Assembly (NCBI GenBank): GCA_017409215.1
Contig: JAFQTD010000029.1
Location: forward strand, 64,106 to 128,105
Direction of reading: 5' to 3'
DNA: 64,000 nucleotides
Source of the DNA: Alphaproteobacteria bacterium
GTDB taxonomy: Bacteria; Pseudomonadota; Alphaproteobacteria; Rs-D84
Position numbers and translations under genes: made by a program
Notes under the pieces: generated by a model
Told to the model about the DNA's origin: nothing
Databases searched by the model: none
What the model saw: the letters and a program-made list of their open reading frames with translations, nothing else
Shown here: positions 7,061 to 64,000 of the stretch, piece after piece
Position numbering within the stretch: the first letter of the stretch is position 1
Layout: every line of letters begins with the position of its first letter

Positions 7061-7090
7061 TGGTGTAGTGGCCGCTAAGGAGATGATGAT

Positions 7091-8900: not shown

Positions 8901-9133
8901 TATAAAGTTAAAATTATTGTTTTTTTGTTCTTGTATGATGTTATTCGCATTATCATCAAGATTTTTGATGATGACGTGTGAGAATCCGTTCCATAGCGTT
9001 TGTATTAAATGTGGTTTTAATTTTATAAAGGAGAGTGCTGATATGTTGTTGCTTTTATTTCCCTTGCCATTAAAGAGGAATTAGGTAGGGTGACTGAATG
9101 GAGGTTTAGGGACTTGGAAGAAATAGTAAATAT

Positions 9134-9157
9134 AAAAAAATTCCCCAATCGGGGAAT
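9134..9157 (-). terminator. Rho-independent terminator of rpsT
   Basis: Stem ATTCCCC/GGGGAAT (9140-9146 / 9151-9157) flanked by an A-run and a T-run. Confidence 0.7.
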
Positions 9158-9504: not shown

Positions 9505-10092
9505 ATGATTTATTTAATTGCAATTTTTATCTCTTATTTATTAGGTAGTATTCCAATGGGATTGTTGTTGACCAAAATCGCAGGCAAGGGGGATTTAAGA
9601 AAGGTCGGCAGTGGTAATATTGGGGCAACCAATGTTATGCGTGTTGGGGGACTGCGTATGGCGGGATTGGTGTGGTTGCTTGATATGGCAAAGGCCATTG
9701 TTGCTGTTTTGTTGGGTAAGTATCTTGCCGGTGATGCGTTTGGCGCGTGGTGTGGTTTTGCAGCAATTGTGGGGCATTGTTATCCAATATGGTTGCGCTT
9801 TAAGGGGGGCAAGGGGATTTCGTCACTGTTTGGTGTAATGTTGGCGATGTCACCGTTGGTATTTGCGATTTGTGGGATTGAATGGTTGTTGGTTGCATTG
9901 TATTCGGGAATTTCTTCTTTGGGGGCAACAATTGTTTTTTGCCTGATTCCAATTTTGGGATTTGTTATGGGGACGGATATAGGTTGGGCATTTTTGGCAA
10001 TTGCATTGTTATGTATGTGGCGACATCGTGAAAATATTAAGCGATTGATTGCAAAAAGCGAATCGAAAATCGAATGGAAGTGGAAGAAATAA
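9505..10092 (+). CDS. plsY: glycerol-3-phosphate acyltransferase PlsY
   Basis: GSGNIGATNVMR motif in a 195-aa membrane protein of about 5 TM segments. Confidence 0.9.
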   Translation: MIYLIAIFISYLLGSIPMGLLLTKIAGKGDLRKVGSGNIGATNVMRVGGLRMAGLVWLLDMAKAIVAVLLGKYLAGDAFGAWCGFAAIVGHCYPIWLRFKGGKGISSLFGVMLAMSPLVFAICGIEWLLVALYSGISSLGATIVFCLIPILGFVMGTDIGWAFLAIALLCMWRHRENIKRLIAKSESKIEWKWKK

Positions 10093-10153
10093 CTTTTATC
10101 TTTATTTTAGTTGAATTTTGTGGTATTATTACTTTGATGAGAGGAAAGTGATT

Positions 10154-10990
10154 ATGAAAAGATTGTATCCATTGTTTTTTTGTTTGACTTCGTTGGTTGT
10201 TGTTGATGCGTGGGCCATCAATCCGATTAGAAATTCTTCTTCGGGGCGTGTTATGACAGCGCAGAGGGCAGGGGTTGTTTCGAAGAAACAGGTTTCTGTA
10301 AATGCCCCGCAGACTGAAAAATTGTCTGATGTAGCGACGACAGAAACGGTTGATGATTCTGCCGCGGTTGCAGAAGAAGTTAAGGCCACTGAAAAAGATA
10401 TGCGTGAAAAAGAACGTATGGCATGTATGGCAAATAATATCGGTGTAAGTAATACTTTTGTTTGGGCATCACGTTATAGTGATACGTCGAATTATGCCAC
10501 AATGGTAGAGGATGTAGAGGTGCCAGATAATAATGTCTGTTTTGTAAAGGCGGCGTTGAAATCAAAAGATCCAAAAATTGATGTTTCTGGTGTGCCTGCA
10601 AAATACTTTGAAATGGGACAGGTTGTGACCTGTGGTGGTTGGGCTGATTATGATTCGTTGAAACAGCAGATATTGGATGCGAAAAAGAAAGGCCGTACAC
10701 TGGGGACGATTGCATCTGTTGTTGGTGCCGCAGGTGTCGGTGTTGGCGCGATGGAATTGTTTGGTAATAAATTAATTGGTGGCAAGGTCGAAGGACAAGT
10801 GAGTTTAGGTGATACAGAATTCTTGCGGTCTGAATTGTTGATTTTACAAAAAGAAGATGTTGCGAAATACAATGAATTTACAGAGAAGTTGAAAGAATTA
10901 GCCGAAGAATGTGGGGATGATAAAGAAAACGAATATTGTAAAAAGTATGTTAAGTTGCACGATTTGATGTTCCCAAAAAACGCTAAGTAA
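10154..10990 (+). CDS. secreted Cys-domain / glycine-zipper protein, paralogue of 39698-40585
   Basis: The ATG at 10154 is preceded by GAGGAAAG. It has a signal peptide (MKRLYPLFFCLTSLVVVDAWA). About 190 C-terminal residues align by eye with the 39698 protein; I estimate more than half the positions are identical (NTFVWA, NNVCFVK, GTIASVVGxAGxGVGAMELFGNKLIGGKV). Confidence 0.6.
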   Translation: MKRLYPLFFCLTSLVVVDAWAINPIRNSSSGRVMTAQRAGVVSKKQVSVNAPQTEKLSDVATTETVDDSAAVAEEVKATEKDMREKERMACMANNIGVSNTFVWASRYSDTSNYATMVEDVEVPDNNVCFVKAALKSKDPKIDVSGVPAKYFEMGQVVTCGGWADYDSLKQQILDAKKKGRTLGTIASVVGAAGVGVGAMELFGNKLIGGKVEGQVSLGDTEFLRSELLILQKEDVAKYNEFTEKLKELAEECGDDKENEYCKKYVKLHDLMFPKNAK

Positions 10991-11006
10991 GAAGGTAATA
11001 AAGAAT

Positions 11007-11034
11007 AAAAAAAACCTGCGCAAGCAGGTTTTTT
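11007..11034 (+). terminator. Rho-independent terminator
   Basis: AAAAAAAACCTGC-GCAA-GCAGGTTTTTT. Confidence 0.75.
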
Positions 11035-11084
11035 AATAGAATATTGTTCTTTATTTAATTGTGATGGTTTTATATTATAAGAGT

Positions 11085-12110
11085 ATGTCAGATATTTATA
11101 AAAAATTATTGATTTTGCGTACCCCTGGGATTGGACCTGTAAAGTTTAATTCATTAATTAACCGATTCGGTGATATTGATTCGGTTGTACAATCTTTGGG
11201 GGCAGATGTTGCCTTTTGTGATTCTGTTAAACGTGAAATGGACAAGGCGGCACAGTTAGGAATACATTATTTATCAGATGATGATGTGTTGTATCCGGCG
11301 AATCTAAGAAAAATAAAAAATCATCCGCCTGTGATTTCTGTGCGTGGCAATTTAGATTCTTTATCAAGACCGATGGTGTCGATTGTTGGTACACGACATG
11401 CAACAGTTGCAGGGATGAATTTTGTTGCGGATTTGGCACAGGCGCTGGCGAATTCGGGTACGGTCGTGGTATCTGGTATGGCAATTGGTACAGATACGGC
11501 TGCACATTATGGGGCATTACGTGCGCAGGGAAATATGCAGACCATTGCGGTCTTGGCAGGTGGGGTGGATTATGTTTGGCCACTGGAAAACGAATCGTTG
11601 TATTATCAAATAATGGAACGTGGTGCTTTAATAAGTGAGATGCCAGTTGGCTTTGTGCCGGTTGCAACAAACTTTGTACAGCGTAATAGGTGGGTTGCGG
11701 GATTGGCGGACAAACTGATTCTGGGCGAGGCTGATTTAAAGTCTGGTTCGATGACAACGGCGCGATTCGCAATCGATTATGGACGTGATTTATGGGCGAT
11801 ACCGTCGCATCCCGCAGATTTACGCGCAGTTGGGCCGAATTCATTGATTCGTTCTGGTGATGCTAAATTATGTATGGGAATAGATGATTTTGTGAATTTA
11901 GAAAATAAACAAACAAAAAACCAAAAAAATTTTGAAAATTTAAAAAGGGAAAATAATCTTCTTGATGCTTTAGGAACAAATCCAGTGTCAGAATCTGTAT
12001 TGGCAGATGTTGTCAAAAAAAGTGTTTCGGAAATTAAACAGGATTTGGTCGTGTTGGAATTGCAGGGTTTAATTCAAAAAGTTGATGGCGGTTATGTTCG
12101 TTTGAATTAG
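11085..12110 (+). CDS. dprA: DNA processing protein DprA
   Basis: Blocks GIGPVKF, VSIVGTRHAT and VVSGMAIGTDTAAHYGAL are typical of DprA/Smf. The start is uncertain: GTG 11061, ATG 11064 or ATG 11085. Confidence 0.8.
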   Translation: MSDIYKKLLILRTPGIGPVKFNSLINRFGDIDSVVQSLGADVAFCDSVKREMDKAAQLGIHYLSDDDVLYPANLRKIKNHPPVISVRGNLDSLSRPMVSIVGTRHATVAGMNFVADLAQALANSGTVVVSGMAIGTDTAAHYGALRAQGNMQTIAVLAGGVDYVWPLENESLYYQIMERGALISEMPVGFVPVATNFVQRNRWVAGLADKLILGEADLKSGSMTTARFAIDYGRDLWAIPSHPADLRAVGPNSLIRSGDAKLCMGIDDFVNLENKQTKNQKNFENLKRENNLLDALGTNPVSESVLADVVKKSVSEIKQDLVVLELQGLIQKVDGGYVRLN

Positions 12111-12464
12111 ATAAAATGTATATACAGTGTATATACAAAGGGCAGAAAACAGCCAAAAAAACGAATCGTTGTCAAAAAATAAATGTTCAAAAATCGTTTA
12201 ATATTTAGTTGTAAATTGATTTTTATATTCTAAATTATCAGACGTATCCAAAAGAAAAATAAACAAACAAATTAAAGCGAGAGAGTTTTACGTAGGAATA
12301 AAAAATATTTGTTAATTCTGTGAATGGTGATTTGATTTTAGAAAGGAAAAATTAATATCACAATTTGTAAAAATGGAATTAATAGGTATTTTCCCCGGGG
12401 TGGTTTTTATAACCTTGGGCGGGATGGGAAAATCTTTCTCGGAAGGAAGGAAAGGAGAAATAAT

Positions 12465-13751
12465 ATGCAGGCACAAACCGCGGCAAAAACACAAATGACA
12501 AACTTGGAAATTATCAAGGGGGCCATTGCCGCAAAAATGGATTCTGCATCTTTTACTTCTTGGATTGCGCCTTTGGCCATGGATGTTGTTGATGGAAATT
12601 TGGTCTTGTGTGCACAAAATCAATTCTCGGCTGATTTTATTACAAGTGTTCATAAAACAATCTTGGCTGATGTTGCTGCAGAATTTGGACTGGGGTTGGA
12701 TATCGTTGTTCGCAACAGTGCAACACGTGCAATTGCACCAATTGCAAATGATAATCAGGCACAGGTATATGCACCTGTTGTAAAGACTGTTGCGGATTCT
12801 GTTAATTTTGATAGTTTTATTACATCTGATGAAAATGCATTTGTTGTATGTGCATGCAAAAAGTTGGCAACAGGTACTGCGCCATTCACACAATTGTTTA
12901 TTTATGGTGTGGCGGGTTGTGGAAAATCTTTGTTGGCAGATTGTATCGCAGGTGCATGTGCGGGTCGTGTTGTTAAAATGTCTGGTGCACAATTTGTTTC
13001 TGAATTTACACGTTCTTTGAAAGAACATAATGTTTTTGCGTTTAAAGATTTCTGCCGTAATTGCAATTTGTTTATCTTGGATGATGTTCAGGCGTTGGCT
13101 GGTAAAAAGGCATCAACCGAAGAATTTTTGCAATTGATTGTTGATTTGCGTAATGCGGGTAAAAATGTTGTCTTGACAGCAGATTCTGCCCCCAGTAATT
13201 TGACAGGTTTTGATCGTCATTCTCAGGGTGTTTTGGCATCTGGTTTGGTTGCAGATGTTGCTGCACCAAACGCACATGTCAAGACTGTTATCTTGCAACG
13301 TGCAGGTGTCAAGGCAGATGTTGCATCTGCTCTGGCCGCACGCGTTGCAAATGATGGACACTTGGTTGCAGGTGTTGCAACAAAAATCAAGACATATGTT
13401 GACTTGATGGGTGCAGATGTTGATATTGATGTTGCAAAACGTCTGTTGGCAGATACATTAACAGCCGTTAAAACACCAAACGCGATGGTTCGTGATATGT
13501 GTGAAAAGTTGGGGGTTTCATACGATGCAGTTTGTGGAAATGGTCGTAGTCGCAACCTGGTTTTTGCGCGTCAAATAATGATGGTTGTATTAAAGAATGC
13601 GACATCTTTATCCTTGGTGGAAATCGGAAATTTTGTTGGTGGTCGCGATCACGCAACAGTGTTGTATGCGGTAAAACAGATTGAAAAACAAAAGGCAACA
13701 GACTTGGTGTTGGCAGCGCAGATAGAACAATTTATCGCGGACTGCAAATAA
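12465..13751 (+). CDS. dnaA: chromosomal replication initiator DnaA
   Basis: Walker A GVAGCGKS, LFILDDVQALAGK, and the C-terminal DNA-binding signature IGNFVGGRDHATVLYAVKQIEK. Confidence 0.9.
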   Translation: MQAQTAAKTQMTNLEIIKGAIAAKMDSASFTSWIAPLAMDVVDGNLVLCAQNQFSADFITSVHKTILADVAAEFGLGLDIVVRNSATRAIAPIANDNQAQVYAPVVKTVADSVNFDSFITSDENAFVVCACKKLATGTAPFTQLFIYGVAGCGKSLLADCIAGACAGRVVKMSGAQFVSEFTRSLKEHNVFAFKDFCRNCNLFILDDVQALAGKKASTEEFLQLIVDLRNAGKNVVLTADSAPSNLTGFDRHSQGVLASGLVADVAAPNAHVKTVILQRAGVKADVASALAARVANDGHLVAGVATKIKTYVDLMGADVDIDVAKRLLADTLTAVKTPNAMVRDMCEKLGVSYDAVCGNGRSRNLVFARQIMMVVLKNATSLSLVEIGNFVGGRDHATVLYAVKQIEKQKATDLVLAAQIEQFIADCK

Positions 13752-13856
13752 AAATTAAATATAATAATTCATCTAAACGCGGTGCCGGAAACTTATGTAT
13801 CTTTTGTACACGTCGTTTCCGGCACTGCGTTTATCTAAACCATTCTATTTAATTTT
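13752..13856 (+). repeat. DR-hairpin-DR element (best-preserved copy)
   Basis: It starts right after the dnaA stop codon. The layout is AAATTAAATATAAT..ATCTAAA, a stem at 13778-13792, a loop TTATGTATCTTTTGTACAC(GTC), a stem at 13815-13829, then TTTATCTAAACCATTCTATTTAATTTT. Confidence 0.8.
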
Positions 13857-14110
13857 AAGCTCTGCAAGGGTGGAAAATATGTCCCTGCGGGGCAATGGAT
13901 ACCCGCCTGCGCGGGTATGACGATGAACGAGGTCGGGGCCCGATACGCAGGAATGACGAATAGAGAGTAGCGGGGCGTGATGCGGGAATGACGGGCGTAT
14001 TGGTGTGGGTGTAATAAGTCCCTGCGGGGCAATGGATTCCTGCCTGCGCAGGAATGACGAGTGTGGGGCGGGGGCCGATACGCGGGAATGACGAAGAGAG
14101 TGGACGTGGG
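13857..14110 (+). repeat. REP-like composite array (GTCCCTGCGGGGCAATGGATxCCxGCCTGCGCxGGxATGACGA units plus GGGGCCxGATACGxGGAATGACGA units)
   Basis: Long units at 13881-13923 and 14018-14060. Short units at about 13936-13960 and 14072-14098. The same modules occur at 43.6 kb and 63.5 kb. Confidence 0.8.
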
Positions 14111-39697: not shown

Positions 39698-40585
39698 GTG
39701 AAAAAATATTTAATTTGTTTGCTTTCGTGTTTGTTTGTTTTGGATGCTGGTGCAGTGACGGCACGTTCTGGGCGTGCGACGTCTGGTCAGCCGATGACTT
39801 TGGGAATGTCGGGCAGGGCGCGACAGTCCGATTTCAAAACAGGGCCCATTAGATTGCAGGGAAATAAGGCTGTGATTCCAGGTGCACCAACTGCGCCAGA
39901 TACACCGGTTGACCCAACACCTGATGTTGACCCAACACCAGATACACCGGTTAATCCGACGCCTGATGTTGATCCAATGCTGGAAGAAATTGCCAGACAG
40001 CGAAATATTTGTCTGTCGAATAATGTTGGCATCAGTAATACTTTTGTTTGGGCGGACAGAAATTCGGATGTGACGAATTATGCATATATGGTTGAAAATG
40101 TCGAAAATCCTGCAAACAATGTTTGTTTCGTAAAGGTTGATATGCGTTCATCTGATGGACGTGTTGATTTGTCTGATATTAAAAGCAAGTATTTTGTTAT
40201 GGGATCTGGAATTAACTGTGGACAGTGGGCAGATGAAAAAGTGCTGGAAGAACGTATCTTGGATGCAACCAAAAAGGGACGCACATGGGGAACAATCGCA
40301 TCTGTTGTTGGGGGTGCGGGTGCCGGTGTTGGTGCAATGGAATTGTTTGGTAACAAGTTAATTGGTGGCAAGGTTCAGGGACAAAAAGCATTAGAGGGTC
40401 AGGAACTGTTGCGGTCGCAAATATTGGCATTGGAAAAAACAAATAAAGCAGAGTATGACAGAATTGTTAATGCGCTGGATGTGCTGGAAAAAGAGTGTAA
40501 ATCAGATGTTTGGAATGGTGGCAACAGACCCGCTGATTGTAATCTGAATAATCCATTTATTGGGCTAAGGGCGAAATTAAAGTAA
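39698..40585 (+). CDS. secreted Pro-linker / Cys-domain / glycine-zipper protein (paralogue of 10154-10990)
   Basis: The GTG start lies after GGAGGG. It has a signal peptide, a DTPV[DN]PTPDVDP x2 linker, and a conserved domain with NTFVWA, NNVCFVK, CGQWAD and GTIASVVGGAGAGVGAMELFGNKLIGGKV. Confidence 0.6.
   Translation: MKKYLICLLSCLFVLDAGAVTARSGRATSGQPMTLGMSGRARQSDFKTGPIRLQGNKAVIPGAPTAPDTPVDPTPDVDPTPDTPVNPTPDVDPMLEEIARQRNICLSNNVGISNTFVWADRNSDVTNYAYMVENVENPANNVCFVKVDMRSSDGRVDLSDIKSKYFVMGSGINCGQWADEKVLEERILDATKKGRTWGTIASVVGGAGAGVGAMELFGNKLIGGKVQGQKALEGQELLRSQILALEKTNKAEYDRIVNALDVLEKECKSDVWNGGNRPADCNLNNPFIGLRAKLK
39899..39976 (+). repeat. 42-bp tandem duplication encoding the DTPV(D/N)PTPDVDP proline-rich linker
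   Basis: GATACACCGGTTGACCCAACACCTGATGTTGACCCA (39899-39934) and GATACACCGGTTAATCCGACGCCTGATGTTGATCCA (39941-39976). Confidence 0.8.
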
Positions 40586-40613
40586 TTTTTATAATAAATA
40601 AAAAGGGAATGTT

Positions 40614-43355
40614 ATGAGAAAGTATTTTTTTATGATTTTTGCGACTTTTTTTGCGGGAAATCTGTGGGCGGCATGTCAGCCAACAACTAATGTTTTAGAA
40701 AATAGGTCTGAGCCAGATCATGACGAATATTTATATGAGAATACTAGGGAGCGTGAAATAAGACAAAATAAAGGACAAGGCGAGGCTTACTTGTGTGGTT
40801 ATGAAGATAAGGGCGGATGCCCACGTGGTGAAAGATTTGCTTTCCGAAATGCAGCAGTTGGTGCTGATAATTATACGGGATTGACGGTATATACTTGTGC
40901 TGGGGGGGGCGACAATTATTTTTGGGAAGCTGTAACAGTGGAAGAAAAATGTTATTCGGATGAACGTGTTTATAGTGAATCTGTTGGTGGGATGACCTTG
41001 TATAAGCTAGGTAATAATAAATATTGTGAACACGTTGTATATCTTAAAGATCTGATAAGAGCAATTGCAGATGATGCGATAGCTAACAATAATGATACTT
41101 TGTTAGAACAGTTTTGGGAAGAGTTGAATACAAAAATTGAAAATATCTATAGAAGTGATGCTTTTATGAATGCAGTTGTGAATGTTGTGAATGGTATGGA
41201 TAAGCCTTTATCAGAAGATAATTTGAATACAATTATTGGATTGATTACGCAAGGAATTCAGAATTCGGGCTTTGCGGATAAAATTGGTGATATCCAATCG
41301 GATATAGAAGGTATAAAAGACCGTATATCTAATCTAGAAGTTAATGTGACGCAGTTAAAGACTGATTTGAAAAACACCACTGATAGTCTTTTTAAGCTTG
41401 CTGTTAAGTATGACGTAACAGTCACAAAAATACAGGCGGAATTTGATGAGTTTTGGGAACAATTGAATGCCAGGATGACTAAAGAAGAGATAGAGGAATT
41501 TGTTAATGAAAAAATCGCTACATTGGAAGAAATGCTTATGTATCTGATACAAGACCAGGGGCGGGATCTTGATAATTTCAAGAATGAAGTTGCAACGATA
41601 CATGAAGTCTTGCAGATTAAGTTGAATGAACATGGTATTAAAATTGCAGAATTGGATAGCAGAATTGCTGCTTTAGAGGGACGTATGGAAGTGGCCGAAG
41701 ATAATATAGCAAGATTAAGAGAAGGGTTGAATCAGGCTGTGACAAAAATTCATGAGCTTGCTGCAGAGTATGGAGTATCTCTTATAAAAACAGAAGCGGA
41801 ATTTAAAAAGGTTTGGGCTGAGTTAGGTAATAAAATGAACAAGGATGATGTAGAGGAATTGGTAAAAACATACATTATAAATTCAGAGCAGATAATTATG
41901 CAGGAAATTCAAAATACAAATTTTGATCTTGATGAATTTAAGAAGAAAGTTGCAGAGATAGAGACAGATTTGCGGGATGAGTTGGAAAAGCATGGTATTA
42001 AAATTGCAGAATTGGATAGCAGGATAGATGCGTTAGAGAATCGTGTTGGTGCAATAGAAGGTGATGTGACGGATTTAAAAACTGGTTTGAAAAACACCGC
42101 TGATAGTCTTTTTGCGCTTGCTGTTAAGTATGACGCAAAAGTCACAGAAATACAGACGGAATTTGAAAAGGTTTGGGCTGAGTTAGGTAATAAAATGAAC
42201 AAGGATGATGTAGAGAAGTTGGTAAAAACATACATTATAGATTTAGAGCAGAAAATTATGCAGGAAATTCAAAATACAAATGTTGATCTTGATGAATTTA
42301 AGAAGAAAGTTGCAGATATAGAGAAAAAATTGCAGGATAAGTTGGAAGAACATGGTATTAAAATTACTGAATTGGATAAAAGGATAACAGAGTTAGAGAC
42401 TCGTGTTGGTGCAATAGAAGTTAATGTGACGGAGTTAAAAACTGATTTGAAAAACACCACTAATAGTCTTCTTGTGCTTGCTACTAAATATGACGTAAAA
42501 GTCGCAGAAATAGAGGCGGAATTTGAAAATGTTTGGGAACAATTGAAAGCCACGATGACTAAAGAAGAGATAGAGGAATTTGTTAATGAACAAATCGCTG
42601 CATTGGAAGAAAAACTTATGGAGCAGATAAATAAACAGGGGAAGGATCTTGAAAATTTCAAGAATGAAGTGAAAAAAATAGAGAACGATTTGAAAGATCG
42701 ATTAAATAAAATTGATATTAGGTTGGATGGTCTGGAAAGTCGTATTAATGATTTAGAGGTTGCGAAGGAAGATATTATCTCTAAATTAGAAAAATTAGCG
42801 GAGACCGATGAAGAATTGAAGAAGGCGATTGAGGCTTTAAAGGCAGATTTAGCGAATAAGGTCACAATGGAAGAGGTTATTGTGGAAATCACAAATAGAC
42901 TTGAAAATGCGGAATTGAACAATAATCAGAGAAAACAAGTGATTGAGTTGATTGAAACATATACTGTCCAATTATCAGATGGGCAACGGCAACAGGTTGA
43001 AATAATGATACAACAAAAAATTGGTAAAAAGTTTGATGAATTAGATGCGACAAATAAATTGCAGGATGAACAAAGGAAGTCACAAGACAGGGTTAATTCT
43101 GCGATGTCTGTTTTGAATGCGTTCGCAGCGGGTCAGGATGCGTCTGTCTGGCGTAATGCAGACGGTAAGTTTAACACAGCGCGTTTGGCATCTGATGCGA
43201 CTGCTGGTGTCATTCTGGGTACCGCCGGTGGTTTGATTTCAAACAAGGTAATTAAGAAAAATCAAATCAAAAAGGGATTTGAGGGTATCGGATGTTATGT
43301 CGGTGGCCAGGTGGTGGCTGATTATGGGGATGAATTTACAGTCGGTATGATGTAA
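40614..43355 (+). CDS. 913-aa secreted coiled-coil repeat protein with an N-terminal Cys domain and a C-terminal glycine-zipper/Cys tail
   Basis: Signal peptide MRKYFFMIFATFFAGNLWA. About 170 aa of Cys-containing head, then four 120-aa heptad-rich repeats. The tail is AGVILGTAGGLISNKV...GIGCYVGGQVVADYGDEFTVGMM. Confidence 0.65.
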   Translation: MRKYFFMIFATFFAGNLWAACQPTTNVLENRSEPDHDEYLYENTREREIRQNKGQGEAYLCGYEDKGGCPRGERFAFRNAAVGADNYTGLTVYTCAGGGDNYFWEAVTVEEKCYSDERVYSESVGGMTLYKLGNNKYCEHVVYLKDLIRAIADDAIANNNDTLLEQFWEELNTKIENIYRSDAFMNAVVNVVNGMDKPLSEDNLNTIIGLITQGIQNSGFADKIGDIQSDIEGIKDRISNLEVNVTQLKTDLKNTTDSLFKLAVKYDVTVTKIQAEFDEFWEQLNARMTKEEIEEFVNEKIATLEEMLMYLIQDQGRDLDNFKNEVATIHEVLQIKLNEHGIKIAELDSRIAALEGRMEVAEDNIARLREGLNQAVTKIHELAAEYGVSLIKTEAEFKKVWAELGNKMNKDDVEELVKTYIINSEQIIMQEIQNTNFDLDEFKKKVAEIETDLRDELEKHGIKIAELDSRIDALENRVGAIEGDVTDLKTGLKNTADSLFALAVKYDAKVTEIQTEFEKVWAELGNKMNKDDVEKLVKTYIIDLEQKIMQEIQNTNVDLDEFKKKVADIEKKLQDKLEEHGIKITELDKRITELETRVGAIEVNVTELKTDLKNTTNSLLVLATKYDVKVAEIEAEFENVWEQLKATMTKEEIEEFVNEQIAALEEKLMEQINKQGKDLENFKNEVKKIENDLKDRLNKIDIRLDGLESRINDLEVAKEDIISKLEKLAETDEELKKAIEALKADLANKVTMEEVIVEITNRLENAELNNNQRKQVIELIETYTVQLSDGQRQQVEIMIQQKIGKKFDELDATNKLQDEQRKSQDRVNSAMSVLNAFAAGQDASVWRNADGKFNTARLASDATAGVILGTAGGLISNKVIKKNQIKKGFEGIGCYVGGQVVADYGDEFTVGMM
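41271..42800 (+). repeat. four 360-bp in-frame tandem repeats plus a partial fifth, inside the coiled-coil gene
   Basis: CATGGTATTAAAATT recurs at 41631, 41991 and 42351, an exact 360-nt period. Units 2 and 3 are near-identical in their second halves. Units 1 and 4 resemble each other. Confidence 0.85.
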
Positions 43356-43568
43356 AATTAAATATAATGGTCTATCTAAAGCGAATGGGGGTGGCTTATG
43401 TAGCGTTTGTACACTACGCCACCCCCATTGGTTTTATCTAAATCATTATAATTAATTTTCAAAATTAACCATAATAATTCATCTAAAACCAATCCCGCCA
43501 ACTTATGTAACTTCTGTACACTGCGTTGTCGGGATTGATTTTATCTAAATCATCATAATTAATTTTAC
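43356..43568 (+). repeat. two tandem DR-hairpin-DR elements
   Basis: Copy 1 has stem AATGGGGGTGGC/GCCACCCCCATT. Copy 2 has stem CAATCCCGCCAAC/GTTGTCGGGATTG. Both have loop TTATGTA(G/A)C(G/T)T(T/C)TGTACAC and TATCTAAA flanks. Confidence 0.8.
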
Positions 43569-43980
43569 CGCCTTGCAAGGGGGGGAAGAAGTGTTGGGTG
43601 TTTAATATGTCCCTGCGGGGCAATGGATACCCGCCTGCGCGGGAATGACGAATAGAGGGGGCAGGTGATGGTTGGGTGTGGTTGGTTTTGTTTTCTTTGT
43701 TTTAACAATTTTTTGTAAAAAAAATTGTCATTCCATGGCTTGACCATGGAACCTAGGTTATGTATTCCTTATTATCGGCACTACCTGGGTCCTGTGGTCA
43801 AGCCACAGGATGACAAAGAGTTAAAAATTTGCAATTTTTGCGGGGCGCGATGCGGGTAGGACGATGAACGAGGGCGGGGCCTGATACGGGAATGACGAAG
43901 AGGCGGGTGTGGAGGCCCGATACGGGTATGACGAGAGTGTGAGTAGGGGCCTGATACGCGGGAATGACGAAGAGAGGGGT
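43569..43980 (+). repeat. REP-like composite array
   Basis: It contains ACCGCCTTGCAAGGGGG, a GTCCCTGCGGGG...GGGAATGACGA unit (43608-43650), an inverted pair of GTCATxCxxxGGCTTGACCxxxGxA hairpins (43727-43814), an AAAAATTTGCAATTTTTG palindrome, and three GGGGCCxGATACGGGxATGACGA units (43877-43975). Confidence 0.8.
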
Positions 43981-43985
43981 GTATT

Positions 43986-44011
43986 AAAAATCCCCCATGG
44001 GGGTGGGGGAT
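43986..44011 (-). terminator. Rho-independent terminator of the Cys-rich protein gene
   Basis: Stem ATCCCCC/GGGGGAT followed by a T-run on the minus strand. Confidence 0.7.
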
Positions 44012-44037
44012 TTGTGTCGATTAAATTTGGAATATTT

Positions 44038-47000
44038 CTATTCCGATAGCTGTGTCGAAATCATATCGCCATACATACCGATTTCGTCAGCACCGATAAA
44101 GCAACGGATTTTCGACCCCAGATTGTCCATGAATTCTTGATAGGCTTCTTGTTCGGCCTTGTCAAGTTTTGCGTTGTGAGCATCTTGGACAATGTGATAT
44201 ACGGTTAATCCACCCGCCAGTGCAGTACCCGCACCAACAATTGCCGCACCGCCCCATTTTTGGAACCAGCCATCGCTGTCTTCCATATTGATTGCGCCGG
44301 CATAAGTGCTTGTACATGCGTCTAACATTGTTTTTAAAGCTCCTGCTGCTGCTGCTGCTTCGTCTGTATTCGAATCGGATATTTCCGTGCTATCGTTTGG
44401 AGCGTTACCCCATATAGCTGCATTGTTGATTAATGCAGAGGATTTTGTTTTATCAGAAGCGGCAATATGTGCATCGCGTATTTCGTTCTCTATATCTCTG
44501 CAATCTTCTAGATCGTTTGCGTTGTTGTTGCAAAGGGTTCGTACACCGCTGGAAAGGTTTTCGGCGGCGGTAATTGCCTCTGTTGCGGTGGATTGCGCTT
44601 CTTTCCACTGAGCCAGAGATGAACCTGAAGCCCCAGGCGCTGTAGACCAAGAATTAAATTGTTGTATGGCAAGGCGTGCTTTGTTTTCGCAAATTTCAGC
44701 ATTTTTCTTTAGTTTGTTTGCGGTATTATCACGCAGTTTGTTTTTCTTGTTCAAACCACCGATTTTGCCGTCAGCAATTGCGTTGCCCAGGAATGCACCA
44801 CCAGTACCCAGACCCAATGCAGCAGCGGCAGTTATCCAACCTTTTTGGCGCTTTGCCTTGGCGGTGGCATTGCCATCGCGGTCTTCCAAACCGGTGGCAG
44901 CGCGTCCTTCTTGCGCGGCGGCATCGGCCAATTCCGCCAGGTCATCAGCTGATAACCATGAACCACAGGTAAATGTATCACCCAATGCAAAGTATGCAGT
45001 TGACCATGATGCATTGTTCTTTATCGCATCTTGGATGTTTTTGTCGTCAGATTGCAATGTGACACGCACACGACAGAATGATCCGTACAGGTCGTTACTG
45101 GCCACGAATTGATTCGTGCTGAGACCAGAAATCGCATAGTTCTTTGGTACGTTTCTGCTCTTTAATTTTACCCACATATATGTAGATCCGTTGTCAGCAT
45201 TGCCCAAAATACCACCCGAATTTGTCGACAGACACATATTTTGTTCACGTGTCAACTTTGCGTTGTATTTCGCCTGGGCCTCTTTTTCAATATCGTAGAC
45301 CAGATCCTTGAATAAGCTGTTTGCAGCTTGTTCTTGCTTGTATGTGGTGACCGATATGTATACTGGTTTGTCATAGGCTGCGCCATTTTCGTCAAAGTCA
45401 TAACATGTACCTTCGACACCAGCAGCATTAGTGCATACATCGTTACCGTTTGCATCAATCTTTTTTACTTGGTCTGTTTGGGCGGTTACGCTGGTTGCAC
45501 TGCCGGCATCATACCAACCAGAACGTACAGAATCAGCATTGCCCCAAGTGTTGGCCATATTGTTGTCCATGTTCATGTCAAGTTTTGCTGTCTCAATCGC
45601 AAGGTGTTCCGCGCAAACGTCAGAGTTTTTCACTGCGTTTACACATAGCCCCAGGATGATTGTGTAATCCAGTACACCGCCAACCTTGTTCATTGATTTG
45701 TCAAATGATGCGTTGCCTGTGTTTGTTAAGTTGGACATCACATCTGTACGATTGCGATAGCAATTTACATAGTCGGCACCACACATGGATTTTACACAGC
45801 TGGTCGCCAATGTTTGACATTGCTTTTTCATTTGTGCAATTGCAACATCGTTGTATGAATTGTTTAATGTCGCATCCAGGTTCGCAACAACACCAATTGG
45901 GTCCATTTTTGTTTCTGCCTGTGGGAATAGAATTTCAAATGCATCGCCCTTGTTATATGCGTAATCAAAGCCACCAGTGGATGTTGGGTTTTGTGCCGCA
46001 TAGATACAGTTCGGGTCAGTGTTTACAACAGATGCACAGCCTTTTTGAATCTGGGCATATGTGTTTTTGCCGTTTATGCCACCGGCACTGGCCAATTTGT
46101 AGCACGCAGCACCAGACCCGCCACCACAAGTGCGCATTGCACAGGCGCGGATTGTTTGTGTGCATTTATCCTTGGCTTCGGTATCAAATTTGTTTACCAA
46201 GTCAGAAATCTTGGATGTCATGCCAGAATTCATACGTGTGGAATATGCCTGGGCAAATACGTCTTCTTGGTTGAATTCGTCACGTAATTCAGAATTTGTT
46301 GGCATTTTGCCTTCGCCAATAAATGTTGCATAGCAATATTTGTTTTGGCCAATTGTATCCATACATTCGCCACGAACATATTTGTTTATGTCTGTTTTGC
46401 TGAGTGTGGTCATCATTGCATCTTCGGTTGGGCCACCAAATGCATTCATATCACCGCGCAAGATATATTCAGCAGATTTTATTATGCCCTGAGGTGTGTT
46501 CTCATAACATTTGTATGGGTTTTTAGTACATGCATTTAATATGCATTGGTCAACCACGCGATAGCAGGTCGATACCGCGTTAATTGCGGCATTTGTTGCG
46601 CCATCTGTAATCATTATGCCGATGCGACTGCTGCCGTCTGGGTCAACAGTACGTGATGCAGAACCAAATAGTTCTTTTAGACCGTCGCTTTGGCAACGCG
46701 CAAGTACGGAATCGCATGCAATGCGTTGCTTTTTGAATTCTTTGTTAGATGTGCATAGTTCAAATTCAGAACCGCATACGTTTTCGCGATTTAGGCATGT
46801 TGTATAACGACGAACACAATTTGATGTGTCGTACATATTCGATATCGCACCAGCTGTAATCAACTGACCCAGCGCGCTGTCGTCCATGGGATATGTGTAG
46901 TCGGTGACTTCGTCGTATTCATTTTTTGTTGCAACGTTTGATAAAACGTCCATGTTGGATGTTCCAAACAGCCGTTGTATGCCACCGTTCGAGCATTGGT

Positions 47001-47355
47001 ATAATGTGCTGAGGCATTGTGGCATCTTGGCATGAAATAAAACCTTGTTCGTGCATTCTTCAAAATTGGAACCGCACACATCGGTATCTTTGATACAGGT
47101 CAGGTATTCATCAACACACTTTGTGTCGTCTAGTAAAGATGAGCTGGCACTGGTCGTTGTGACAGTGGCAACAGTACCACCGCTGGACTTTGCAAGTGCA
47201 GATGCAAGTGTTGGCATACGACGCCCAGATGCGCTGACCGCGGCCGCCCCCTTGCCAACAGGCATAACCCCAGGACGCGCAGTCACACCATGTGCAACAG
47301 AAACGACGCTGAACGCAAAGATTAAACTGAATGTGTGTTTTAAAAATGATGGCAT
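44038..47355 (-). CDS. roughly 1105-aa secreted Cys-rich protein with an embedded copy of the 10154/39698 domain, two glycine zippers and the shared C-terminal tail
   Basis: The ATG at 47355 lies 6 nt after AGGAG. Signal peptide MPSFLKHTFSLIFAFSVVSVAHG. About 40 Cys, with repeated C-x6-C-x6-C-x6-C-x12-C-x6-C blocks. The tail is GTALAGGL...IRCFIGADEIGMYGD. Confidence 0.65.
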   Translation of the reverse strand: MPSFLKHTFSLIFAFSVVSVAHGVTARPGVMPVGKGAAAVSASGRRMPTLASALAKSSGGTVATVTTTSASSSLLDDTKCVDEYLTCIKDTDVCGSNFEECTNKVLFHAKMPQCLSTLYQCSNGGIQRLFGTSNMDVLSNVATKNEYDEVTDYTYPMDDSALGQLITAGAISNMYDTSNCVRRYTTCLNRENVCGSEFELCTSNKEFKKQRIACDSVLARCQSDGLKELFGSASRTVDPDGSSRIGIMITDGATNAAINAVSTCYRVVDQCILNACTKNPYKCYENTPQGIIKSAEYILRGDMNAFGGPTEDAMMTTLSKTDINKYVRGECMDTIGQNKYCYATFIGEGKMPTNSELRDEFNQEDVFAQAYSTRMNSGMTSKISDLVNKFDTEAKDKCTQTIRACAMRTCGGGSGAACYKLASAGGINGKNTYAQIQKGCASVVNTDPNCIYAAQNPTSTGGFDYAYNKGDAFEILFPQAETKMDPIGVVANLDATLNNSYNDVAIAQMKKQCQTLATSCVKSMCGADYVNCYRNRTDVMSNLTNTGNASFDKSMNKVGGVLDYTIILGLCVNAVKNSDVCAEHLAIETAKLDMNMDNNMANTWGNADSVRSGWYDAGSATSVTAQTDQVKKIDANGNDVCTNAAGVEGTCYDFDENGAAYDKPVYISVTTYKQEQAANSLFKDLVYDIEKEAQAKYNAKLTREQNMCLSTNSGGILGNADNGSTYMWVKLKSRNVPKNYAISGLSTNQFVASNDLYGSFCRVRVTLQSDDKNIQDAIKNNASWSTAYFALGDTFTCGSWLSADDLAELADAAAQEGRAATGLEDRDGNATAKAKRQKGWITAAAALGLGTGGAFLGNAIADGKIGGLNKKNKLRDNTANKLKKNAEICENKARLAIQQFNSWSTAPGASGSSLAQWKEAQSTATEAITAAENLSSGVRTLCNNNANDLEDCRDIENEIRDAHIAASDKTKSSALINNAAIWGNAPNDSTEISDSNTDEAAAAAGALKTMLDACTSTYAGAINMEDSDGWFQKWGGAAIVGAGTALAGGLTVYHIVQDAHNAKLDKAEQEAYQEFMDNLGSKIRCFIGADEIGMYGDMISTQLSE

Positions 47356-47429
47356 TCCCAACTCCTGTATTTATACTTATTTTTTATTCTAGCATAATTT
47401 AGCAACATTAAAAAGCAAAAAATCGTGCA

Positions 47430-48167
47430 TTAGAATAAAATGTTTACTTGTGCGCCAACTTGGATGTCGTCGCTTTCAAATTCATAGTCAATATGGCCCG
47501 AGTATTGTGTGCGGCCAAATTGCCGAACCAGATTAAAATGTAGCCATTCTTGGTCGTAATCTTGACCCGTTAGACGGTCTTGGTTGGTGGCGACACGTAT
47601 CGTTAGGCCGGTACCAAAACGCCAGTCGGGGGCAATTCTAAAATATGCCTGGGGGATAAAATCAAGGTATGCCATTCCCCGTAAATCGTCAAATATCCAA
47701 CTGGACTTTATCGTGCCAGATAGTGTCATCCCGGCCCATTGACGACCAAAACGAAGCCCCGCATAATAGGTTGAATCTGCATAGTATGGGGTGCGTACTT
47801 GGCTGCTGCCACCGAATTTGAAGCCAAATAGTACGTCCGATATTATGCCCGAATTGTTGTCGCTGGCGGTTGCAATACGATAGGTTGCCCCAAGGTCGGT
47901 CGCAGCAAAACCGTCTTCGTTGCCGTTAAAGTCGTGTTGATAGTGTATGTTTATACCAACAGATAAACGATCGTTTAGGCCGTATGATAATGATTGACCC
48001 GCACGTAAAATATGGTCCCAATATGTTATGGTTGATTTTGATAAAACGCTGGACATCGGTTGTATGTATAATGGGTCAGATGTGTCGTTATCCAGAATGT
48101 TTGAATGACCAAGGGTCGGGATTAATAGTGATAATACAATGAATATTCTTGATAAAAAATTGTGCAT
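47430..48167 (-). CDS. small outer-membrane beta-barrel protein (about 245 aa)
   Basis: Signal peptide MHNFLSRIFIVLSLLIPTLG, alternating hydrophobic beta-strand pattern rich in Y/G/D/N, and a C-terminal ...VNILF with terminal Phe. Confidence 0.55.
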   Translation of the reverse strand: MHNFLSRIFIVLSLLIPTLGHSNILDNDTSDPLYIQPMSSVLSKSTITYWDHILRAGQSLSYGLNDRLSVGINIHYQHDFNGNEDGFAATDLGATYRIATASDNNSGIISDVLFGFKFGGSSQVRTPYYADSTYYAGLRFGRQWAGMTLSGTIKSSWIFDDLRGMAYLDFIPQAYFRIAPDWRFGTGLTIRVATNQDRLTGQDYDQEWLHFNLVRQFGRTQYSGHIDYEFESDDIQVGAQVNILF

Positions 48168-48236
48168 GGAAATTCTCTCTCGCTTGTGAAAAAAAAGCAT
48201 TTTTGCCCCCAAGTATTATGCTTGGGGGCATGGGGG

Positions 48237-49535
48237 TTAGAATTGGAATATTGCCTGAACACCAATTGTGGTTTCTGCAATATTATCCACCTTTACTGTG
48301 CCAAAATGGGTTAGTTGATTTAGAGGAAATACTGTCCCGTCTGCTGGATTTTGAGCCTCTATATGTGGTTCCATCCAGTATAAATCAAGGTTTTTGTCGT
48401 TCGCACTGTCAAAGAATGCTGTCTTGGCATACAGATTTAATGCAAACCAATCGTTTGGTTGCCAGCCAAGCGCACCCTTGATGGATGCCTGGTTGTGCCA
48501 GTCGTAATGACCAAATACACCTTCTAGGTTCAAGGTCCAGTCTTCGTTCAACACACTGAACATACCCAGACCGCCTTCGATGTAGATGGCATTGCTGCTG
48601 CCAACCTGATATGGGATATAGAATGCTGCAGGTTTACCATTTTCGTCAAAACCAGTAATCCCATTGCCATAGGAGTTCCCATCCAGGTCAAGATACCATG
48701 CGCGCGCCAATCCATAAATAGTGGATTTTGATACTTTATAACCAGCCTTGATGTCAATCAGGAAGTTGTTTGATATGTCTTGCTGATGTTGAAAGTATGC
48801 GGATGCGGTCGCAATCCATTGGTCGTTATCAATAAAGCGCCACTGTGCACCAAGACCAAATATGTTCAGACCATCGTCGTCCATTGTGTCGGCAGGTGCG
48901 CCATTGTCATATTCGAACTTGTAATCGTTCATATCATATTCAAGCAAGCCAACCAATGCGATTTGGTCGTTAATACCATAACTAAAATGTTCTTTGATGG
49001 AAATTTGGTCTGCCTTCCATTTGCCACCAACGCCATTTAGTGCCAGTGAAAATGGGTCACTGCTGCCCGCTGGGCGAATTGGCAATGTTTGATTAATTAC
49101 AAAATCATACGAGTTGTTGGTAAAACCAATGTCCGTAATGGAACCAAATTTTTCACCCAATGGTTGGAAGAATGGGTGTGCAAGATAATATTTGCGACGC
49201 ATCTTGGTCGTCACAGTTTCAGAACGGGTCTTGCGTACGGTGGTTTTTGTTGCAGTCGCAGCAGGAGAATTTGCCGCAGTATAGGATTTGTACATTGTGT
49301 TGCGATTTGCAGGCTTTACATAGTACATATCACTATTGTTTTTTGTTTCGTACGTTTTGGTTGTTGTACGGGTTGTGTATTTTCTGTAATTTATGCTGTT
49401 TTGTTCGCGTGTTGCAGGCGCGTCAGATAGGTTGGCGGTTGTACCAGCGCGTGCGCCGACGTTGGTTGCGGCAGTGGCAGTACCAGTGCCGATAATGGCC
49501 AATGCGCCAAGAAATAATGGTAATGTTCTTTTCAT
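48237..49535 (-). CDS. outer-membrane beta-barrel protein (about 432 aa) with a Thr/Lys/Arg/Tyr-rich N-terminal extension
   Basis: The ATG at 49535 is preceded by AAAGGAG. Signal peptide MKRTLPLFLGALAIIGTGTATA. The first roughly 110 aa are low-complexity, followed by a beta-strand pattern and a C-terminal ...VQAIFQF. Confidence 0.55.
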   Translation of the reverse strand: MKRTLPLFLGALAIIGTGTATAATNVGARAGTTANLSDAPATREQNSINYRKYTTRTTTKTYETKNNSDMYYVKPANRNTMYKSYTAANSPAATATKTTVRKTRSETVTTKMRRKYYLAHPFFQPLGEKFGSITDIGFTNNSYDFVINQTLPIRPAGSSDPFSLALNGVGGKWKADQISIKEHFSYGINDQIALVGLLEYDMNDYKFEYDNGAPADTMDDDGLNIFGLGAQWRFIDNDQWIATASAYFQHQQDISNNFLIDIKAGYKVSKSTIYGLARAWYLDLDGNSYGNGITGFDENGKPAAFYIPYQVGSSNAIYIEGGLGMFSVLNEDWTLNLEGVFGHYDWHNQASIKGALGWQPNDWFALNLYAKTAFFDSANDKNLDLYWMEPHIEAQNPADGTVFPLNQLTHFGTVKVDNIAETTIGVQAIFQF

Positions 49536-49580
49536 GTTAAATCTCCTTTTGATTGTGATTATAGCATAAATATTTATCAT

Positions 49581-49613
49581 AAAAAAGAAAAAAACAGCGC
49601 GAATTTCGCGCTG
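49581..49613 (-). terminator. Rho-independent terminator of the acyl-CoA synthetase gene
   Basis: Stem CAGCGCG/CGCGCTG followed on the minus strand by TTTTTTTCTTTTTT. Confidence 0.75.
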
Positions 49614-63283: not shown

Positions 63284-63480
63284 AAAAATTAAATATAATG
63301 GTCTATCTAAACGCGGTGCCGGAAACTCATGTATCTTTTGTACACATCGTTTCCGGCACTGCGTTTATCTAAACCATTCTATTTAATTTTTACCGCACTG
63401 CAAGGGGCGGTGTGGCTTATGTATCTTTTGTACACTGCGTTGTCGGGATTGATTTTATCTAAATCATTATAATTAATTTT
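63284..63480 (+). repeat. one intact and one chimeric DR-hairpin-DR element
   Basis: Copy 1 (63286-63390) is nearly identical to the dnaA-associated copy. Copy 2 (63391-63480) has the conserved loop, but its left arm (GGCGGTGTGGC) does not pair with its right arm (TGCGTTGTCGGGATTGA). Confidence 0.8.
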
Positions 63481-64000
63481 GCCGCAAGGCAAGGGGGGGG
63501 AATAAGTCCCTGCGGGGCAATGGATACCCGCCTGGAATCACCCACAAAAATTTATAATTTTTGCGGGGCCCGATACGGGTATGACGATGAACGAATGCGA
63601 TACGGGTATGACGATGAACGAGGAAAGGGGGGCAGGTGATGGTTGGGGTGATAGTAAGTTGTTAAAACTTTATGTTGTAATGGGCAAATAAATTATTTGA
63701 ACTGTTGTTTATTCTTAGTTTTATTAAAAACGCTCGTCATTCCCGCGCAGGCGGGAATCTACTGCCCCGCAGGGATACTGATAGTGGCGTTTTTTAATTT
63801 TTAGGAAATCCTAGATTAAAATTTTGTGTGACGCGAAAAGCCACATCGATGATAAAGAGCCAAGGATTTATAATTTTTGCGGGGTGTGAAAAATTCACAA
63901 AATAAGTCCCTGCGGGGTAATGGATTCCCGCCTGGAATCACCCACAAAAATTTGTAATTTTTGCGGGGCCCGATACGGGAATGACGAAGAACGAGGACGG
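63481..64000 (+). repeat. REP-like composite array, truncated by the window end
   Basis: About 85-nt near-identical direct repeats at 63501-63585 and 63901-63985 bracket an inverted unit CGTCATTCCCGCGCAGGCGGGAATC...CCCCGCAGGGA (63737-63780). Several GATACGGGxATGACGA units are also present. Confidence 0.8.

Follow-up and report, generated by a model that had tools for sequence, protein, structure and literature searches.

Do five neighboring genes for exported proteins, found at positions 39698-49580 of a 64,000-nucleotide (nt) stretch of DNA from an Alphaproteobacteria bacterium of the order Rs-D84, encode a single surface-protein system? The stretch, referred to below as the window, comprises positions 64,106-128,105 (forward strand) of contig JAFQTD010000029.1 in assembly GCA_017409215.1. 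A first-pass annotation had proposed that three secreted proteins with shared modules, here called A, B and C, are exported or anchored by two adjacent outer-membrane barrels, D and E. Our analysis favors a different answer, to which we assign a probability of roughly 0.55: A, B and C would belong to a superfamily of Sec-exported, disulfide-rich envelope proteins that are held in a membrane by glycine zippers, with A as a co-anchor for B, and D and E would be an unrelated pair. So far, its members have come to light in no bacteria other than gut Alphaproteobacteria placed in Candidatus Enterousia / Rs-D84.

The five genes and A2, a distant paralogue of A, are located as follows.

39698-40585, + strand: gene A, 295 amino acids (aa)
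40614-43355, + strand: gene B, 913 aa
44038-47355, - strand: gene C, 1105 aa with 40 Cys (open reading frame (ORF) 44038-47361; start ATG at 47355 according to the orthologues)
47430-48167, - strand: gene D, 245 aa (ORF 47430-48212; start at 48167 according to the D-family alignment)
48237-49535, - strand: gene E, 432 aa, the length of the database orthologues (ORF 48237-49580; start at 49535)
10154-10990, + strand: gene A2, paralogue of A with 45% identity

The three large ORFs reported earlier to carry signal peptides (295, 913 and about 1105 aa) are all present, and the N-termini of all six proteins (A, A2, B, C, D and E) show basic residues followed by a hydrophobic, signal-peptide-like segment.

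Homologous modules in A, B and C

B contains a signal peptide, a Cys-containing N-terminal head, a coiled-coil stalk and a C-terminal module of ~90 aa (~43083-43352). The module comprises, in order, SVWRNADGKFNTARLASD, a glycine-zipper helix, KKNQIKK and C-Y-V-G-G-Q-V-V-A-D-Y-G-D-E-F. Alignment of four B-family tails with 81 C-family tails using hhalign gave probabilities of 89-94.5% and E-values of 8e-8 to 2.5e-7. The alignment spans 57-59 columns, reaches the last residue, and matches up the hydrophobic G-x3-G helix and the C-[YF]-[VI]-G-x3-[VI]-x2-Y-G-D hairpin of the two families. The tail common to B and C, noted in the first-pass annotation as module c, is borne out by these scores, which indicate real homology of the zipper helix and the Cys hairpin.

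The last 134 residues of B retrieved 942 clusters at 50% identity, 898 of them with E 1e-10 or better. In 150/150 of the matches listed, in proteins of 98-941 aa, the matching segment lies at the C-terminus or a few residues from it. The general tail signature is W-K-N-x-E-G-K-F-N-T-A-R-L-A-S-D, a glycine-zipper helix, K-K-N-Q-x-K, and C-x-V-G-G-Q-x-V-A-D-W-G-D-E-F. A set of 120 full-length representatives carries signal peptides and a median of 24 Cys; a strict lipobox, which would indicate lipoprotein anchoring, is found in just 3 of the 120. Relatives of B (289, 724, 910 and 913 aa) retain the head and the tail; what lies between them can be a coiled coil or beta-rich repeats, or can be missing. 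Because the tail occurs at the extreme C-terminus of proteins from 942 different 50%-identity clusters, it behaves like a common anchoring or sorting module; the earlier suggestion of a sorting or anchoring signal thus gains support, as a predicted anchor-like element. The tail of the C type was found in no proteins other than C orthologues and one antisense artefact (84 loci, ~1.6 Mb).

A comparison with type I (N-out, C-in) membrane proteins pointed in no single direction: B has a signal peptide and a hydrophobic helix before KKNQxK, the hydropathy of the helix is marginal (1.25-1.5), and conserved Cys come after it. Beyond the helix, both B and C continue for 25-45 conserved residues. The stalk of B consists of 3.8 tandem copies of a 360-bp unit (41335-42692), of which the two newest are 89% identical, a pattern that marks the stalk in the window as a recent tandem expansion.

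A contains a signal peptide, an Arg-rich VTARSGR... motif, a Pro/Thr-rich linker, a three-Cys domain with a glycine zipper (module b, ~39986-40387), and a C-terminus that is helical and contains two conserved Cys. The linker itself contains in-frame tandem repeats (39896-39977) of 18/42-bp units coding for PDTPVDPTPDV-type sequence. The repeats in A (39896-39977) and B (41335-42692) point to length variation of both proteins. The A family has at least 902 members of ~280-300 aa, every one annotated as hypothetical.

Several searches connect A to C through module b. BLASTP aligned A and A2 with C residues ~700-870 (1e-7), and tblastn matched A residues 97 to ~225 with the same part of C orthologues in ~70 independent loci. 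A hidden Markov model (HMM) of the full-length C family found 25 A-family metagenome proteins (E 1e-9 to 1e-5), always at HMM positions 701-894. The invariant A-family residues C105, C143 and C174 pair motif by motif with C710, C763 and C799 of C. No part of the A family is better conserved than the zipper that follows, and conserved Cys lie on either side of it in both A and C; those after the zipper are the pair C267 and C281 in A, and C891 and C1016 after the first zipper of C. Together these matches indicate statistically supported homology common to A, A2 and C. The first-pass annotation had described module b as a four-Cys domain with a zipper; the homology stands, and the number of Cys is three. 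The zipper taken alone is not a searchable module, and gave no significant A-C match (modZ HMM, E 2.7).

The same annotation had also named a motif of the SGRxM(T/P) type, just after the signal peptide, as a shared module (module a). The position of VTAR directly after the predicted signal peptide is identical in A and C, VTARP[SG]...RRMPT is almost invariant across the C family, and G-[QR]-x-R-R-[ST]-M is present in many A-family members. As a homologous motif (VTAR/RRM), module a did not rise above chance (HMM E 0.23; hhalign probability 0.2%), and it was dropped.

Protein C contains both types of module

C consists of a signal peptide, the VTARP...RRMPT motif, helical Cys-rich domains, an A-like three-Cys domain with its zipper (~44734-45264), a variable four-helix bundle, and a tail with a B-like zipper helix and Cys beta-hairpin (44041-44259). 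The databases contain at least 839 relatives of C, all called hypothetical. They are present in 222 species-level genomes from animal and human guts, labeled Candidatus Enterousia, uncultured Alphaproteobacteria or uncultured Rickettsiales. Among the full-length orthologues listed, identity to C ranges from 45 to 90%, and about 40 Cys are invariant.

An AlphaFold2 model of C, built from an 81-sequence alignment, has a mean predicted local distance difference test score (pLDDT) of 67.7 and a predicted template modeling score of 0.40. Helical Cys-rich domains are modeled at residues 75-600, and a mixed alpha/beta domain, which is the part in common with A, at residues 630-820. There follow a first zipper at low confidence, a confident four-helix bundle (874-1027) that is variable in the alignment, a second zipper at low confidence, and a tail with a helix and a three-stranded hairpin. 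Foldseek comparison of the model with the PDB returned generic helical bundles only, the best with E 0.3.

Relation to known families and systems

Pfam and NCBIfam scans of A-E returned no family, only coiled-coil noise for B, and no significant match came from PDB searches with profiles of the C, A, B-tail, D and E families. Literature searches on Enterousia and Rs-D84 turned up no account of these proteins. That no characterized family was recognized in them earlier agrees with the Pfam, NCBIfam and PDB searches and, for C, with the structural search. Sequence comparison places all five in families conserved across Candidatus Enterousia / order Rs-D84, and indicates that A, B and C constitute a new, order-specific superfamily of exported proteins with anchor-like modules.

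The zippers resemble those of glycine-zipper envelope proteins (the Rickettsia 17-kDa antigen, PF05433, PF13488 and SlyB/Pcp), which are likewise exported proteins of Gram-negative bacteria with marginally hydrophobic G-x3-G segments. However, A, B and C have no match to PF05433, PF13488, PF13436 or PF13441 at E up to 1, and A (...DAGA/VTAR) and C (...VAHG/VTAR) lack both a Cys at +1 and a lipobox. The present zippers also lie between Cys-containing domains, or in a C-terminal module before a conserved Cys hairpin.

The layout of B, with a signal peptide, a head, a coiled-coil stalk of variable length and a conserved C-terminal anchor, is reminiscent of the trimeric autotransporter adhesins (type Vc). 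The anchor differs in being one predicted hydrophobic helix with a small hairpin, ~60 aa in all, and not a beta-barrel. Pfam and NCBIfam scans found neither the autotransporter domain PF03797 nor YadA_anchor (PF03895) in A, B or C, and the last residue of B and of C is not aromatic. Exosortase and rhombosortase signals (PEP-CTERM and GlyGly-CTERM) are similar in that a C-terminal motif, a helix and basic residues recur on many unrelated exported proteins of one lineage. There is, however, no NCBIfam CTERM match, B and C continue beyond the helix with their conserved residues, and no sortase-like partner gene was seen in the gene neighborhoods examined.

The variant-specific surface proteins (VSPs) of Giardia have a variable Cys-rich ectodomain, a conserved transmembrane helix and an invariant short tail, and form a large multigene family in a eukaryote with a single membrane. 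The B-tail family is comparable in placing a variable Cys-rich ectodomain on a near-invariant C-terminal helix and tail. The two are not homologous, the B tail is longer (~30 aa) and folded, and surface exposure and switching enter the comparison with Giardia only by analogy. With this qualification, the overall logic of the family appears closest to variant surface protein families such as the Giardia VSPs.

Gene neighborhoods of C, B-tail and A-family genes

Genes E, D and C point the same way; 69 nt separate E from D and 74 nt separate D from C, and A and B lie 28 nt apart. The housekeeping genes asmA-like, uvrB and tsaE lie upstream of A, and a gene for an AMP-binding acyl-CoA synthetase lies upstream of E. 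The spacer and the predicted hairpins are as follows.

43356-44037, no strand: convergent B/C spacer, 682 bp, with repeats
43988-44013, - strand: hairpin downstream of C, AAATCCCCCA...TGGGGGATTT then a short T-run; terminator-like, z -4.08
48204-48230, - strand: GC-rich hairpin immediately 3' of the E stop codon, z -4.1; U8 run 8 nt downstream
49595-49613, - strand: hairpin with T-run between the acyl-CoA synthetase gene and E; intrinsic-terminator-like, z about -4

The outer two hairpins correspond to the terminators placed earlier at 43986-44011 and 49581-49613, and no hairpin was predicted between D and C. Of the proposed E-D-C transcription unit with ~70-nt gaps, the common direction and the gap lengths hold, and the E-D gap contains the hairpin at 48204-48230.

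We compared 80 species-level C loci with 10-kb flanks. D and E adjoin C in 2/80, L006 and L007, which are the closest relatives of the window with flanking DNA, and neither D nor E lies near a B-tail gene in any of 81 loci. In three more distant genomes an E-D pair of 62-67% identity adjoins fabD, and C is absent within 8 kb. Since E-D is found beside fabD without C nearby, it appears to be a conserved two-gene unit of its own, separate from A, B and C, which stands next to C only through a lineage-specific rearrangement. The first-pass annotation had named a lack of linkage to barrel genes elsewhere among the outcomes that would refute its proposal, and such linkage is confined to these 2 of 80 C loci and 0 of 81 B-tail loci. 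The idea that the barrels are dedicated export or anchoring partners is not supported by these counts or by the association with fabD, and the conserved barrel-cargo neighborhood of a dedicated exporter system (two-partner, FapF-like or usher-like) was not found in these loci. D and E are most simply viewed as general porin-like proteins, present clade-wide and unrelated to A, B and C.

The usual context of C is different. In 66-69/83 loci, C lies directly downstream of a conserved pilin-like block (L001 4083-9927), which contains genes for three large paralogues of 400-450 aa with prepilin-like N-termini, e.g. G|ASITEVLLAMAIIAI, a 175-aa protein with a zinc ribbon and a transmembrane segment, a 153-aa secreted protein, and an rluD-like gene. 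No Pfam family was found for the proteins of this block, save one faint DUF3426 match on the 175-aa protein. C is apart from the block in the window lineage, L018 and L023, and none of the block genes is in the window.

Loci of C (e.g. L001 13646-15850) often contain, close by on its downstream side, a gene for a ~440-aa secreted Cys-rich protein (38 loci) and one for a ~264-aa barrel-like protein ending in YRF (26 loci), either of them no more than a few genes away. Neither has a detectable relation to E or D (hhalign probability 13% or below), and a relationship of D to the small barrel-like protein often found near C elsewhere (c11) is unsupported by the same measure (13%).

An A-family gene lies within 6 kb of a B-tail gene in 36/81 B-tail loci. 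It immediately precedes the B-tail gene in 12 of these and immediately follows it in 5, and most of the others show the order (TcpQ-secretin)-PlsY-A2-DprA-DnaA-B. Chance linkage would amount to a few percent by a rough, uncomputed estimate from a few copies per <1-Mb genome. Up to three B-tail genes occur together per locus (81 loci), and the order uvrB-tsaE-A-B of the window is found again in L090 and L092. A2 stands in the conserved context TcpQ-secretin-PlsY-A2-DprA-DnaA; in the window, the genes for a TcpQ-like protein (400 aa) and a secretin (542 aa) are at 5858-8719 (+), with 9505-13751. The clade-wide order is TcpQ-secretin-(B-tail gene)-PlsY-A2-DprA-DnaA-(B-tail gene), from which the window lacks both B-tail genes. 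Judged by gene order across genomes, the proposed system falls apart into three independent units: E-D, C, and the A-family with the B-tail genes.

The junction between B and C

B and C were described earlier as converging on a repeat-filled spacer of ~680 bp, which agrees with the 682 bp listed above. The spacer contains two 106-nt palindromic units, an inverted repeat with 34-nt arms, and about four tandem units of 34-36 nt containing CGGGAATGACGAAGAG. L006 is collinear with the window from 57.3 down to 43.98 kb, then jumps to 13.86 down to 5.0 kb. The 30-kb segment with uvrB-tsaE-A-B is absent between C and dnaA in L006, and in the window a copy of the repeat cluster flanks it on each side (13.83-14.10 kb and 43.35-43.98 kb). 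The boundary of B and C is a repeat-bounded rearrangement junction, and the spacer is a genome-wide element that is not specific to this locus.

The composite dispersed intergenic repeat occurs three times in the window (13830-14098, 43354-43983 and 63364-63991), always on one strand and with its parts in one order: 106-nt palindromic units (motif TTTATCTAAATCATYATAATTAATTTT), then ~36-nt tandem units with CGGGAATGACGAAGAG (9 matches against 0.31 expected). An Rfam search of the spacer found no known RNA above threshold. The inverted repeat at 43708-43825 (-) gave a sub-threshold match to the Wolbachia sRNA WsnRNA46 (39.9 bits against a gathering threshold of 65.3; E 1.5e-5), a resemblance that suggests a class of palindromic elements common among Alphaproteobacteria. 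dnaA lies at 12465-13751 (+), yet the cumulative GC skew climbs monotonically over the 64 kb with no sign change near dnaA; the skew is near zero only at 44-48 kb, where C and D occupy the minus strand.

The E-D gene pair

E has 814 relatives at 60-100% identity. The AlphaFold2 model (mean pLDDT 70) shows a disordered N-terminus of ~115 residues, signal peptide included, followed by a closed beta-barrel at residues ~120-432 (block-mean pLDDT about 70-93). Foldseek matched the model to Pla/OmpT, FapF, the COG4313 channel, FadL and CymA (E 3e-7 to 1e-5, probability 1.0), which are barrels of 10 to 14 strands with many functions, at TM-scores ≤0.6 and ~10% identity. As these matches are generic, E is modeled as an outer-membrane beta-barrel of no assignable family. 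It differs from such generic barrels in its N-terminal extension of ~100 aa (residues ~23-115; 49190-49470, - strand), which is disordered yet strongly conserved, basic and Thr/Tyr-rich, with many invariant R, Y, K and N. No known motif was recognized in the extension, which might be a tether to peptidoglycan or within the periplasm.

D shows 66-89% identity across five relatives. Its sequence includes a signal peptide, lacks Cys and ends in ILF, features from which we infer a small outer-membrane beta-barrel, the conserved partner of E. The earlier description of two outer-membrane protein genes ending in a C-terminal Phe is upheld by the residues (ILF in D and FQF in E) and, for E, by the model; for D the barrel is predicted from its sequence features. 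Pfam and NCBIfam scans found no POTRA, plug or usher domains in D or E, and known porin families (among them Porin_1/2/4, OMP_b-brl and OmpA_membrane) gave no Pfam match below E 0.02 and no PDB sequence match to the profiles. A paralogous relationship between D and E was considered and is unsupported (BLASTP E 0.004, hhalign probability 2.6%).

The hairpin after the E stop codon is kept in position in the window and five relatives (L006 at ~9129-9155, L007, L085, L086 and L087), with differing stem sequences. This positional conservation suggests differential expression of E and D, and the hairpin could be a partial terminator or an mRNA-stabilizing element that sets the E:D expression ratio.

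Discussion

In the arrangement that we favor, the B-type proteins would be the multi-copy and very variable members of the superfamily, in which an ectodomain that varies, and is often repetitive or very rich in Cys, lies between a signal peptide and the near-invariant C-terminal module. The A-type proteins, two of which are encoded in the window, would be small and conserved, with the three-Cys domain and a different, highly conserved zipper. C would be a single-copy, highly conserved giant member that combines the A-type module and the B-type tail in one chain. The proteins would be exported by Sec and undergo oxidative folding in the periplasm, and the C-terminal module would then act as an anchor or retention element in a membrane. 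Because both zipper types occur in one C chain, we propose that the A-type and B-type zippers of separate proteins probably pack together within the membrane, with A as the membrane partner (co-anchor) of the B-type proteins. The variable ectodomains would form the contact or uptake interface of a bacterium thought to depend on partners. The Lys-rich residues that come next after the helix of B are in keeping with a stop-transfer anchor in the inner membrane, and the high divergence of the B ectodomains fits surface exposure.

Several observations weigh against this arrangement. Surface-exposed B would need a route of export across the outer membrane, at present a hypothetical one. Membrane insertion of the zippers is a prediction, their Kyte-Doolittle hydropathy of 1.25-1.6 is marginal for a transmembrane helix, and the zipper segments of the AlphaFold2 model of C fall below pLDDT 50. 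Were the inner membrane spanned by both zippers of C, its tail and the homologous tail of B would come to lie on opposite faces, and the presence of conserved Cys both before and after the zippers also speaks against a simple passage through that membrane. The A-B interaction is read solely from the fusion-like co-occurrence of the two modules in C, and the A-B linkage may be partly plain synteny, with housekeeping genes intervening in A2-dprA-dnaA-B.

One competing explanation is the original one, in which the outer-membrane proteins E and D are partners dedicated to export or anchoring, and a single operon, E-D-C, encodes a surface system that also serves A and B. The short gaps, the common direction, the hairpins that flank the block, the order retained in L006 and L007, and a genuine barrel in E whose Foldseek matches include the 12-stranded secretion channel FapF would all suit it. 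The linkage is nevertheless missing from 78/80 C loci and 81/81 B-tail loci, the E-D unit is found beside fabD in other genomes, a conserved hairpin parts E from D, the juxtaposition in the window is a repeat-bounded rearrangement, and the structural matches are generic. Synteny largely refutes this explanation, and we consider it very unlikely. Another explanation, which we rate as unlikely though more probable than the first, is that an export or display machine built from a secretin and pilin-like proteins, similar to a type IV pilus or type II secretion system, has C, and perhaps also A and B, among its substrates or components. The position of C after the prepilin-like block in most loci and of the A2 and B-tail genes in the conserved neighborhood of TcpQ and a secretin argue for such a machine, and Cys-rich cargo folded in the periplasm would be expected to suit type II-like secretion. 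On the other side, rluD, plsY, dprA and dnaA are interspersed, and the synteny may lack functional meaning; C is also split from the pilin-like block in three lineages, that of the window among them. The evidence here is synteny, and a machine of this kind is compatible with the envelope superfamily that we favor, not exclusive of it.

The zipper regions were also considered as the membrane-inserting feet of alpha-helical pore-formers of the XaxA/YaxA type, aimed at the membrane of a partner cell. C resembles these subunits in a long helical bundle, which precedes its second zipper, and in a Gly-rich hydrophobic segment; the C-family profile gave weak local matches (E 0.046 for XaxA and 0.69 for YaxA), the best stretch pairs the second zipper with the hydrophobic foot of XaxA, and the clade has been proposed to live in dependence on partners (PMC12306168). 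Neither E-value reaches significance, a match to a poly-Q TATA-binding protein is just as strong, and Foldseek, with generic bundles at E ≥0.3, gives no support. The lead was rejected as compositional bias, and a conserved tail after the helix on hundreds of unrelated ectodomains fits an anchor better than a toxin, so that we give pore formation very little credence. Pure chance or compositional similarity among unrelated, glycine-rich, low-complexity secreted proteins is less probable still. It would account for module a and for the failure of the zipper alone to connect A and C. For modules b and c it is already refuted by the profile comparisons, and by conserved Cys and aromatic residues that match in position outside the glycine-rich stretch.

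A bolder extension of the envelope-superfamily interpretation, which we regard as tentative, is that the ~90-aa module is an undescribed anchor or sorting domain that tethers diverse Cys-rich ectodomains to the cell surface, with A as co-anchor, C as a fused core, and the ectodomains as a contact or scavenging interface. If true, it would be a bacterial counterpart of variant-surface-protein systems. The module definitions in any case yield usable handles (HMMs, a testable anchor and a predicted A-B interaction), and a tempting operon-based inference about the neighboring barrels has been corrected.

Bacteria of the Rs-D84/Enterousia group occur widely in the guts of animals and humans. With genomes of <1 Mb, they lack the tricarboxylic acid cycle, respiration and standard transporters, and a lifestyle dependent on partners has been proposed for them (PMC12306168). 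Genomes of ~900 genes nevertheless retain the 1,100-aa Cys-rich C, conserved at 45-90% identity, together with several proteins of the A type and many fast-diverging ones that have the B tail in common. Because they are kept despite such a small gene set, the A, B-tail and C families are prime candidates for the envelope interface of these bacteria with their partners.

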